Position numbers and translations under genes: made by a program. This document shows positions 45,567 to 46,688 of a stretch of 64,000 nt of DNA, piece by piece. The stretch is from positions 1,184,001 to 1,248,000 of the forward strand of contig OY969807.1 in the NCBI GenBank assembly GCA_963703285.1. The letters are read 5' to 3'. A model generated the notes under the pieces. It made no database searches and had not been told where the DNA came from. It was given only the letters and a program-made list of their open reading frames with translations. Every line of letters starts with the position of its first letter. Position 1 is the stretch's first letter. This stretch comes from an uncultured Nitrososphaerota archaeon (GTDB lineage: Archaea; Thermoproteota; Nitrososphaeria; Nitrososphaerales; Gagatemarchaeaceae).

Positions 45567-45854
45567 CTAGTGACTGGCGAACAGGACGACGACCACGAGG
45601 ATTAGCGCTATGAGGCCCAGCGCAACGACCCTCAGAGTTCCGTTCCTCTCCCAGATGGTAATCGTTGCGTCGAACCGATCGATGGGGTTCCTTGAGTTCA
45701 GCTTCCTGACCAGCCTGAGCGCCTCCTCGTAGACGAACTGACCCCGATCTATGAGGATGATGTTGTCCCCTCTCATGACGAGCGAATGACCCGCGACCGC
45801 CAGTGGCAGGCGGGACCTCCTGTTCGCCCATTCGGTAAAGTGCTCTTCGCTCAT
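45567..45854 (-). CDS. Small protein with C-terminal TM
   Basis: 95-aa ORF; TTTAGA box upstream. Confidence 0.6.
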   Translation of the reverse strand: MSEEHFTEWANRRSRLPLAVAGHSLVMRGDNIILIDRGQFVYEEALRLVRKLNSRNPIDRFDATITIWERNGTLRVVALGLIALILVVVVLFASH

Positions 45855-46035
45855 CGTCGCTCAGCCGAGTCCTCTAAAGAGCCTCTCCTTCTTTACCGTT
45901 TTGGATGCTTCATTCGAGCCTGACGCAGGTCCACTTTCGCCAGGGGGGAAGGGTCGCCGGTTCACTTGTAGACCGAGGCTCTGTCCGGCCTCCAGGACGT
46001 GGCCCTTAAGTACGCTACGCGGATCATCATACGAA

Positions 46036-46290
46036 GCAAAATCGTCGTGAAGACGGGTCGCTAAGCGATCCGTCCGATGTTGGATATGAGGTTGGCTGGC
46101 AGCCGTAAAATCCAGTGCTGGCAATAGCCAAGCTCGTCAGTGAATTTGCTGACAGGGCGGGTGAGGTTCTCCCGTCCCAGGGCCCGCAGGTGAAGCGATG
46201 GTACAGGAACCCGACGACGACGGTAATCCTGAAAGTCGATGCGGGCAAGTCTGATGTAGTGGTGAGTCCCGCAGATTAGACAGAACCTAG
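46036..46290 (+). ncRNA. Candidate structured ncRNA (unassigned)
   Basis: At least six stems, three possible pseudoknots, G-U pairs favour the + strand, CTTAAG box at 46005-46010. Confidence 0.55.
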
Positions 46291-46535
46291 ACCGATACCT
46301 CGACGCTCGACGTCTGCTCGGTCGTCTTCTTCCTGCGCTTCCTTATGTTGTTCATAGCTTCCTCGGCGACCTTCTTGAAGTCCGCCTTCGAAAGGGCGCG
46401 CGCAGCATCATCGCACTCCTTCCCCGTGATTCTCTCGACCTCCTCGTCCAGCTCCTGCTGCACCTTCTCGTTCCTCGCCTGGACGAAGAGGATGAACAGC
46501 TCTCTCCTCATCCGCTCGAAGAAGAACTCGCTCAC
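46287..46535 (-). CDS. Small hypothetical protein
   Basis: 82-aa helical ORF; TTTAAA box ~20 nt upstream. Confidence 0.6.
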   Translation of the reverse strand: MSEFFFERMRRELFILFVQARNEKVQQELDEEVERITGKECDDAARALSKADFKKVAEEAMNNIRKRRKKTTEQTSSVEVSV

Positions 46536-46688
46536 TTTCGGGTCTTAGATGTTTAAACCAGTCCCGGGAAATGAAGTTTGCGGTGGCTGACCTCGCGGCG
46601 AAGTCGGGTCGGTGCGGCTTCTTTGTCAGGCGTTGACGATGAGACGCTCCCGCCAAAGCTTATCTGAAGATGCAGCGAAGCCGAATCC

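Follow-up and report, generated by a model that had tools for sequence, protein, structure and literature searches.

A probable TnpB-type ωRNA scaffold without tnpB, in an inverted-repeat-bounded insertion of a Nitrososphaerota archaeon

What kind of gene lies at positions 46036 to 46290 of this 64,000-nucleotide stretch of archaeal DNA (the window, i.e. the whole of positions 1,184,001 to 1,248,000 of contig OY969807.1, assembly GCA_963703285.1, from an uncultured Nitrososphaerota archaeon)? A preliminary description, made from the letters alone, had seen there a compact pseudoknotted RNA of unknown class, possibly a ribozyme, encoded on the + strand beside a membrane protein and a tRNA-binding protein. 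The non-coding RNA gene with its own upstream box is supported by our analysis and is conserved with compensatory changes, whereas the unknown class is not, as both sequence and structure are homologous to the ωRNA that tnpB genes encode at their 3′ ends. TnpB is a nuclease ancestral to CRISPR-Cas12. Its guide RNA, the ωRNA, is encoded at the tnpB 3′ end and extends up to the right end of the transposon (PMC10691335, PMC10097598; here and below, statements on published work follow excerpts of the papers cited). The feature is very probably a TnpB-type ωRNA scaffold that sits in an insertion bounded by terminal inverted repeats (TIRs) and a target-site duplication.

Homology to tnpB 3′ ends and conservation of the fold

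BLAST and nhmmer searches of the window's own genome (G000, a single contig of 2.25 Mb that is 96% complete) return four paralogous matches to the element. Copy B (1322683–1322892) is near full-length with 78% identity over 209 nt, and the other three, at 630, 981 and 153 kb, cover the 3′ core only and are found directly downstream of matches to PF07282 (TnpB Zn-ribbon), of which the genome holds nine. In tnpB elements the shared core also codes for the protein C-terminus (...GNP..ILRVDASK), and in two of the three tnpB loci an open reading frame (ORF) of 436 or 442 amino acids (aa) reads through the core and stops inside ...GTTGACAGAACC, the 436-aa protein giving a PF07282 match. In the window copy and copy B a 1-nt indel disrupts the protein frame in the core, and tblastn upstream of the window copy (5′ half) recovers no TnpB remnant; thus it is the RNA that is conserved, not the protein. 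The genes upstream of the window copy are unrelated, and its lack of overlap with a tnpB places it in a ‘standalone’ ωRNA subclass. The tnpB-linked copies, e.g. G000:C1:630381–630500, are themselves dual-coding in that their most conserved ωRNA helices also encode the C-terminal ...EA(V/M)KGNP..ILRVDASK tail; the standalone copies are out of frame in this stretch and so offer a natural test of RNA-level versus protein-level constraint.

Same-genus relatives contribute three further long copies, all in one genome (G016), and the five long (‘A-type’) copies can be aligned from ...AATCGTCG to ...CAGAACC. The covariance model built from these five (R1), whose E-values are rough by construction, matches 153 places, most of them tnpB 3′ ends, across 19 of the 23 genomes of the genus; eight are in the window's own genome, two of them standalone and six at tnpB 3′ ends. 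Among the best 34 of the 153 matches, most of a tnpB stands upstream in 18, a partial tnpB or a contig end in 4, and no tnpB in 12, which are the five long copies and seven shorter ones (six of ∼200–220 nt and one of 306 nt). Conservation ends at ...GAACC in all copies, beyond which the sequence is copy-specific and the flanks are unrelated, as are the neighbouring genes of the other four long copies. The homology to tnpB 3′ ends and the R1 matches together are strong indicators that the window RNA is a TnpB ωRNA scaffold.

The seven stems and three long-range complements of the preliminary description are all exactly complementary in the window copy (Table 1), and the CTTAAG box noted upstream is present at 46005–46010, 26 nt before 46036. 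The + strand of 46030–46295 folds to −104.8 kcal/mol (z −3.97), a value equalled by none of 200 shuffles, and the − strand of the same region has a z of −2.55 with 2 of 200 shuffles equal. No Rfam family (Rfam 15) reaches its gathering score anywhere in the window; in E-value mode, 45800–46600 yields only chance-level matches (E 2.3–9.9, the best being 2.3; RAGATH-10, RsmY and snoRNAs), and a tRNA/tmRNA scan found none.

Comparison of the homologous copies provides strong evidence that the fold is conserved as a structure. On a MAFFT alignment of the five (A2), the helices first described have 83.3% of cells paired and 19 of 65 pairs changed on both sides, with 0 of 500 shuffles reaching any of five measures and slid controls giving only 32–53% paired. 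Three helices score low on this alignment (49–63%), namely GTCAG/CTGAC, GGGCGGG/CCCGTCC and the GGTTC/GAACC contact, because in the MAFFT alignment the window copy is shifted by one column; RNAalifold on the five long copies recovers those hairpins in the correct register, and 23 of its 71 pairs carry a compensatory change. An alignment of 34 copies (A3), which was fitted to R1, reaches 92.7% paired cells (69% after shuffling), with changes on both sides in 56 of 66 pairs. The helices of the conserved core are 100% paired on A2, with 3 and 2 covarying pairs, and 97.5–100% paired in the 34 copies, and six of the seven pairs of the terminal stem changed on both sides among the five. Within the middle domain, which is missing in the ∼200-nt standalone copies and whose exact fold is ambiguous, TGGAT/ATCCA is 100% paired with one covarying pair and TTGGCT/AGCCAA 83% paired with no covariation (A2).

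Three pseudoknots had been proposed. The GGUUC/GAACC contact corresponds in position to the guide-proximal pseudoknot of the ISDra2 TnpB ωRNA of Deinococcus radiodurans, in which positions −5 to −3 pair with −103 to −105 in a scaffold of 116 nt (PMC10097598), whereas TGGAT/ATCCA turns out to be an ordinary nested helix in the consensus fold. Both GGTTC and GAACC are present in all five A-type copies; among 14 copies compared, GGTTC is present in 13 (in L043 it lies just 5′ of the matched part), and 13 terminate in GAACC, L059 having GAACT instead. The 5′ contact (pseudoknot 1) shows one covarying pair in the five long copies (UA in three, CG in one and UG in one), and its helix length is matched by leader shuffles in 1 of 500 for the window copy and in 12–51 of 500 for the other four. 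In the short ∼200-nt standalone copies the complementarity of leader and loop resembles that of shuffles (131–382 of 500), and pseudoknot 1 is claimed for the long copies only.

The insertion, its ends and its likely carrier

The element is an insertion of 311 bp (45977–46287). All five relatives that keep both flanking genes have an empty site with a single TAGRCCRR, and the spacer between these genes is 55–204 nt in the five versus 422–472 in the window; the right end of the scaffold, as set by these empty sites, is the right end of the element. The left end (GGCTCTGTC..., at 45977) and the reverse-complemented right end (GGTTCTGTC..., ending at 46287) match at eight of their first nine positions and at 15 of 26 overall. 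The insertion also altered an 82-aa ORF on the opposite strand, whose stop TAG consists of the last base of the element and the first two bases of the duplication, and whose frame, as read by eye from the relatives' empty sites, would have stopped two codons later before the insertion. As the same intergenic spot lacks the insertion in five of five syntenic relatives, the UPF0182 and tRNA-binding neighbours are incidental, and the membrane ribonucleoprotein with UPF0182 on which the preliminary description had speculated loses its footing.

The element contains an archaeal promoter-like box, CTTAAGTA. Boxes of the TGGG(C/T)GCTTAAGTA type occur ∼25–30 nt before the RNA start in 11 of 12 standalone copies, L035 having a looser TTTAT stretch. 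The same box type is found upstream of full tnpB ORFs and is thus probably the tnpB promoter, kept when the ORF was lost; judged by its sequence, it may act as the promoter of the window RNA. An 8-bp flanking repeat occurs at the expected distance in 16 of 23 standalone copies, other genera included (11 exact, 5 with one mismatch), where chance would place an exact 8-mer in the 550-nt search space in <1% of cases. The same holds for five of six tnpB elements of the own genome. In G016 (contig C29, locus L033) two long standalone ωRNA elements (654–908 and 1501–1749) follow each other in tandem on the same strand, ∼850 nt apart, and each is flanked by a separate exact 8-bp repeat (ATCAAACT for the first, ATAAAGCT for the second). 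The tnpB copy E of the own genome (G000:C1:153465–154800), though frame-shifted into frames of 295 and 183 aa, retains its ωRNA region, right end and exact 8-bp duplication (GAAGAGAA).

Direct repeats of 8 bp, inverted repeats of 15–20 bp, GG tips and a cTGTt motif are given as marks of the IS6 family (PMC7986276). In agreement with these, the window element has an 8-bp repeat identical at 8 of 8 positions, GG tips and a CTGT motif, and ends related to those of IS6 elements. The genome has three DDE_Tnp_IS240 (IS6-family) transposase genes, two of which (PF13610 matches) reside in elements of 4,626 and 2,785 bp; the ends of these elements (GGTTCTGTTAACTC... and GGTTCTGCTAACTC...) belong to the same repeat family as those of the tnpB elements and the window element, and 8-bp duplications are present. 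The TIR starts compared for the IS6 elements of the own genome are GGTTCTGTTAAC... and GGTTCTGCTAAC. Both elements surfaced in a genome-wide search with the right-end motif at 2 mismatches (153 matches, mostly noise). The larger (G000:C1:1251536–1256161; L083:137–4762) lies ∼3.5 kb past the end of the window, with TIRs matching at 23 of 26 positions and the duplication CGACAGCG, and encodes a 412-aa DDE_Tnp_IS240 transposase at 1254916–1256154 and an 805-aa N6-DNA-methylase/Eco57I-like protein, apparently a restriction-modification passenger. The smaller (G000:C1:1357534–1360318; L084) has repeats matching at 26 of 26 positions and the duplication CCCCGAAG, and encodes a 297-aa transposase at 1357591–1358484 and a 224-aa ORF with no Pfam match.

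Elements of the IS200/IS605 and IS607 groups are described as having no inverted repeats and no duplications (PMC13565253). A PATE-like IS200/IS605 origin was considered and rejected in view of the 8-bp duplication, the inverted repeats and the lack of any Y1 TnpA (PF01797) in the single-contig, 96%-complete genome. A single element with both transposase and tnpB was not found in our searches, and the argument for IS6 carriage is therefore made from the shared ends and the duplication length. On such features the balance of evidence favours an IS6-mobilised carrier, the tnpB and ωRNA-only elements being non-autonomous passengers of IS6-type transposases. Taking RNA and carrier together, we think it quite likely that the element derived from tnpB-bearing elements of the same lineage through loss of the nuclease gene, and that it is a standalone guide RNA gene on a miniature inverted-repeat element. 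The own genome also has two near-identical TnpB genes (G000:C1:634276–635649 and 684587–685957) that are without the ...GACAGAACC end and unmatched by R1; the ends of the ORFs upstream of them look like an IS607-type serine recombinase (translation read by eye).

Putative guide function and rival explanations

A protein-less element implies, by analogy with published work, that its ωRNA must act in trans with a TnpB encoded elsewhere. One candidate partner is the TnpB at 630381–631688. In alignment with solved TnpB/Cas12f-like nucleases it retains the D, E, D and CxxC...CxxC motifs and thus looks catalytically intact. The 16 nt that follow the scaffold (46288–46303) are the presumed guide by analogy with ISDra2 (PMC10097598). 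The dinucleotide TT is found at −3/−2 before the left duplication in 15 of 21 elements (hand count), which suggests that the target-adjacent motif is of the TTN type. Neither of the 16-nt presumed guides of the two own-genome copies matches elsewhere in the genome with <2 mismatches; the only perfect match of each is its own flank, which in the window copy is preceded by GAACC rather than a target motif.

These elements can be assembled into a putative cycle. An IS6-family DDE transposase encoded elsewhere would insert the element and thereby create the duplication; the internal promoter would transcribe the scaffold into the flank, so that the guide of the RNA would consist of the duplicated 8 bases and the adjacent flank; and a TnpB from elsewhere (e.g. 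the intact-looking copy at 630381–631688) would bind the scaffold in trans. The complex may then cut the uninterrupted target beside a TTN-like motif, i.e. alleles without the insertion, and recombinational repair could copy the element into them, which would help it to persist and spread. All steps of this cycle are inferred, transcription, TnpB loading, cleavage and homing among them.

Two metatranscriptome contigs (235 and 202 nt; libraries of two studies) give a weak hint of expression, matching 46063–46255 and 46100–46255 at ∼90–94% identity; both cover the A-type-specific part and then continue into a terminal stem of their own. No public run reaches a share of one half of the sampled words, the highest being 0.19, and RNA run X4 covers only the conserved core at 46180–46243, its uncovered parts being uninformative. 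As for maintenance, copy B and its counterpart in G016 (G16c) lie in collinear flanks with 71% identity over 2,646 nt, largely coding; the elements themselves share 78.5% identity, and of the 18 pairs that differ between them 13 can still form. The B/G16c pair thus gives signs that such RNAs are maintained. Whether the window copy is expressed and used by a TnpB is, in our estimate, an evenly balanced question.

Several observations weigh against this account of a working guide RNA on an IS6-type carrier. The RNA-library contigs are a weak hint of expression, as they stem from a relative's copy and such libraries can carry DNA. The window copy is 66–68% identical to the four other long copies, and its source element is not in the genome, so that recent activity is unproven. 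Its 5′ half has no similarity to the tnpB-linked copies that BLAST detects, so that compatibility of the window RNA with the resident TnpBs is assumed, and full-length R1 alignments to the tnpB-linked copies of the own genome score only 45–65 bits. The near-invariance of GGUUC and GAACC means that covariation cannot test their pairing. After their first 9 bases the two ends of the window element agree poorly. A target preference of the transposase could also account for the TTN bias, although the two IS6 elements have TAT at those positions. Finally, IS6 transposition is described as replicative (PMC7986276), so that the excision-repair logic of IS605-type elements may be out of place here and the idea that the element homes into empty alleles is conjectural.

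The rival that fares best is an inert, decaying relic of a tnpB element, which would have lost its nuclease gene by internal deletion and would persist because deletion is slow. The divergence of the single window copy and its degenerate left repeat (15 of 26) fit such a relic, as do the lack of identical or near-identical sister copies in the own genome and the 22 other genomes of the genus searched, and the truncated or frame-shifted tnpB copies in the genome (e.g. a 183-aa fragment at 153 kb), which indicate that decay is common. Against a relic, the window copy retains full complementarity in all ten helices and a fold that beats 200 of 200 shuffles, the duplication is still identical at 8 of 8 positions and the promoter-like box has been kept. 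The B/G16c pair points the same way, in that most changed pairs (13 of 18) still pair and the element is more similar than its flanks (78.5% versus 71% identity), and copies that lack a protein but keep promoter and intact ends form families in several genera, which suggests that they transpose as such. We therefore regard the relic as unlikely, while giving it real weight.

Far less probable is a domesticated guide-RNA gene that the host uses, with TnpB or a nuclease-dead derivative, for regulation or defence in the manner of TldR-type repressors. TnpB-derived regulators are documented in bacteria (10.1101/2023.11.30.569447; PMC13622181), copy B occupies an orthologous locus in two species and its structure has been preserved there, and the RNA has its own promoter-like box. 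However, neither presumed guide finds a genomic match (<2 mismatches) outside its own flank, the window copy is a lineage-specific insertion missing from five of five syntenic relatives, and the catalytic residues are intact in the co-resident TnpB that was examined.

A new class of tertiary-structured RNA or ribozyme, possibly linked to the UPF0182-like or tRNA-binding neighbour, would accommodate the pseudoknot-rich fold and the lack of an Rfam match, but is hardly credible: the RNA is clearly homologous to tnpB 3′ ends and lies in a mobile insertion that repeats and a duplication delimit, its neighbours stay together without it in five of five syntenic relatives, and the other four long copies have unrelated neighbours. 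A small protein-coding gene has next to no chance either: the mechanical ORFs of 54–87 aa that overlap the region (46115–46279 on +; 46027–46248 and 45861–46124 on −) have no Pfam match, every frame is closed by stops in three or more of the five homologous copies, helix variation is compensatory and indels do not come in threes.

Relation to known systems, distribution and neighbourhood

As in ISDra2, the window RNA is a long structured scaffold that ends at the right end of the transposon and is followed by a (here putative) guide derived from the flank, it has a putative pre-guide pseudoknot (here GAACC at −5 to −1 with the GGUUC loop ∼120 nt upstream), and copies homologous to it overlap the tnpB 3′ end. 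Unlike ISDra2, the scaffold is ∼252 rather than 116 nt long, has no attached tnpB and has its own promoter-like box; it adds a 5′ pseudoknot and the middle domain, and matches no Rfam model. Protein-less mobile ωRNA elements that co-reside with effector loci, with the ωRNA used in trans, have been described (PMC10691335; 10.1101/2023.03.14.532601). The window element resembles such standalone or PATE-like elements in being mobile and without effector or transposase in a genome that has effector loci (the nine PF07282 matches). PATE-like elements, however, carry the subterminal hairpins of IS200/IS605 ends, make no duplication and rely on Y1 TnpA to move, whereas the window element has IS6-type inverted repeats, an 8-bp duplication and a promoter-like box inside its left end, in a genome without Y1 TnpA; the repeats and duplication likewise set its carrier apart from IS200/IS605 carriers in general (PMC13565253).

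Modules of TnpB within the inverted repeats of DDE transposons have also been described, with solo tnpB presumed to be moved in trans (PMC10691335), and the window element shares with these prokaryotic DDE-associated TnpB and eukaryotic Fanzor systems a TnpB/ωRNA module between inverted terminal repeats. The DDE partners given for prokaryotic TnpB are IS630 (PMC10691335) and ISL2, IS630 and IS1031 (PMC13565253), whereas the ends and the 8-bp duplication of the window element point to IS6. For the IS6 family itself, two miniature inverted-repeat transposable elements (MITEs; 227 and 336 bp) are mentioned, and one member only with a passenger gene (PMC7986276). The window element is like these MITEs in its length (311 bp), in having both insertion-sequence ends, GG tips with the CTGT motif and the 8-bp repeat, and in having no protein gene; it differs in that it carries a structured guide-RNA gene with a promoter-like box. 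The excerpts of the papers cited do not name IS6 as a TnpB partner, although Figure 4 or the supplements of PMC10691335 may list it, and a search of the literature from 2021 on for TnpB and ‘IS6 family’ gave nothing relevant, its one result being a report on a clinical plasmid. Protein-less ωRNA elements are thus already published, and, as far as these excerpts go, an IS6-type carrier appears unreported.

The analysis removes a false lead, the RNA being neither a new ribozyme class nor connected to its neighbours. The unusually large (∼250 nt), putatively doubly pseudoknotted scaffold helps to annotate orphan structured RNAs that Rfam misses in soil archaea, and the compact natural scaffold together with the intact-looking TnpB forms a candidate guide/nuclease pair. 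The IS6-type ends with duplications bear on why OMEGA systems rarely pair with prokaryotic DDE transposons (PMC13565253). More tentatively, in soil Thermoproteota (Nitrososphaerota- or Bathyarchaeota-titled) TnpB-ωRNA modules may travel as passengers of IS6-type transposons whose 8-bp duplication starts the guide beside TTN, and guide-only, promoter-bearing MITEs may parasitise both transposase and nuclease; some of these may be selected as working guide genes, such as the orthologous copy whose helices are maintained in two species.

The family extends beyond the genus. Titled public genomes were scanned with an exact pattern of the core, which gave at least 118 stretches, on 80 of which R1 was run. 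A match was obtained in 66, all archaeal-titled and mostly from Nitrososphaerota/Thaumarchaeota and Bathyarchaeota. Thermoproteota, Crenarchaeota, an Asgard chromosome and two records titled ‘archaeon’ are also among them, as is a Thermoplasmata-titled metagenome-assembled genome (MAG) with a weak partial match of 31 bits. The 14 loci with no R1 match (13 bacterial-titled, one Thorarchaeota-titled) were treated as chance pattern matches. Among the top 24 matches, the upstream TnpB is a C-terminal remnant of ≤70 aa in 14, ∼90 aa in one and at least 160 aa in nine. Just one long-type copy turned up in the titled records, in a MAG titled Nitrososphaerales archaeon. A standalone copy in the Asgard-titled chromosome (L104, 3389–3568 in match orientation) has the same right end (...CGAAGACTTGACAGAACC), while its left end reads GGCTCTG... 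and its flanking repeat matches at 7 of 8 positions, which suggests transfer of such elements across archaeal phyla.

Table 1. Positions in the window of the RNA, its helices, the ends of the insertion and adjacent genes.
Feature	Position	Strand	Remarks
Membrane protein, 921 aa	42790–45555	+	No Pfam match at E ≤ 0.01; NCBIfam PRK00068 at 31 bits versus a cut-off of 995
Left copy of target duplication, TAGACCGA	45969–45976	.	Exact 8-mer repeated at 46288–46295
Left TIR, GGCTCTGTCCGG...	45977–45998	+	GG tip and CTGT motif of the IS6 family
Promoter-like box, GTGGCCCTTAAGTA	45999–46012	+	B recognition element/TATA-like; contains CTTAAG; conserved box in standalone copies
ωRNA scaffold (probable), ∼252 nt	46036–46287	+	R1 score 236.6 bits; consensus fold of 71 pairs
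Pseudoknot 1, UCGUCGU with hairpin loop ACGACGA	46042–46048/46214–46220	+	94.3% of cells paired in 5 copies
Long-range TCGTCGT/ACGACGA	46042–48/46214–20	+	Exact complement
Hairpin P1	46052–46074	+	93.8% paired, 3 pairs changed on both sides (A2); 8 of 9 pairs covary (A3)
P1 strands, GACGGGTCGC/GCGATCCGTC	46052–61/46065–74	+	
Middle domain (A-type-specific)	46081–46153	+	TGGAT/ATCCA, TTGGCT/AGCCAA, GTCAG/CTGAC
Long-range TGGAT/ATCCA	46081–85/46110–14	+	Exact complement
Stem TTGGCT/AGCCAA	46092–97/46126–31	+	Exact complement
Hairpin GTCAG/CTGAC	46136–40/46149–53	+	Exact complement
Hairpin with GGUUC loop (46165–46169)	46155–46177	+	Partner GAACC 46283–46287; putative guide-proximal pseudoknot
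Hairpin GGGCGGG/CCCGTCC	46155–61/46171–77	+	Exact complement
Long-range AGGTTCT/AGAACCT	46164–70/46282–88	+	Exact complement
Conserved core	46182–46246	+	Stem 46182–88/46240–46 around 46204–08/46227–31 and hairpin 46211–13/46221–23
Stem GCCCGCA/TGCGGGC	46182–88/46240–46	+	Exact complement
Stem CAGGA/TCCTG	46204–08/46227–31	+	Exact complement
Variable terminal stem and right end ...GACAGAACC	46249–46287	+	Stem 46249–55/46275–81; also the right TIR
Terminal stem GTCTGAT/ATTAGAC	46249–55/46275–81	+	Exact complement
ORF, 82 aa	46287–46535	−	Last codons hit by the insertion; from the ORF list
Right copy of duplication (46288–46295) and presumed guide, TAGACCGATACCTCGA	46288–46303	+	Sequence after GAACC differs per copy

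With regard to the neighbouring genes, the UPF0182 label of the membrane protein is weakly supported by the match to PRK00068, which we take to be UPF0182 (Table 1); if related at all, the 921-aa protein is a very distant member. The tRNA-binding assignment of the other neighbour is well founded, with a PF01588 match at E 7e-22 and matches to CsaA/tRNA-binding models.

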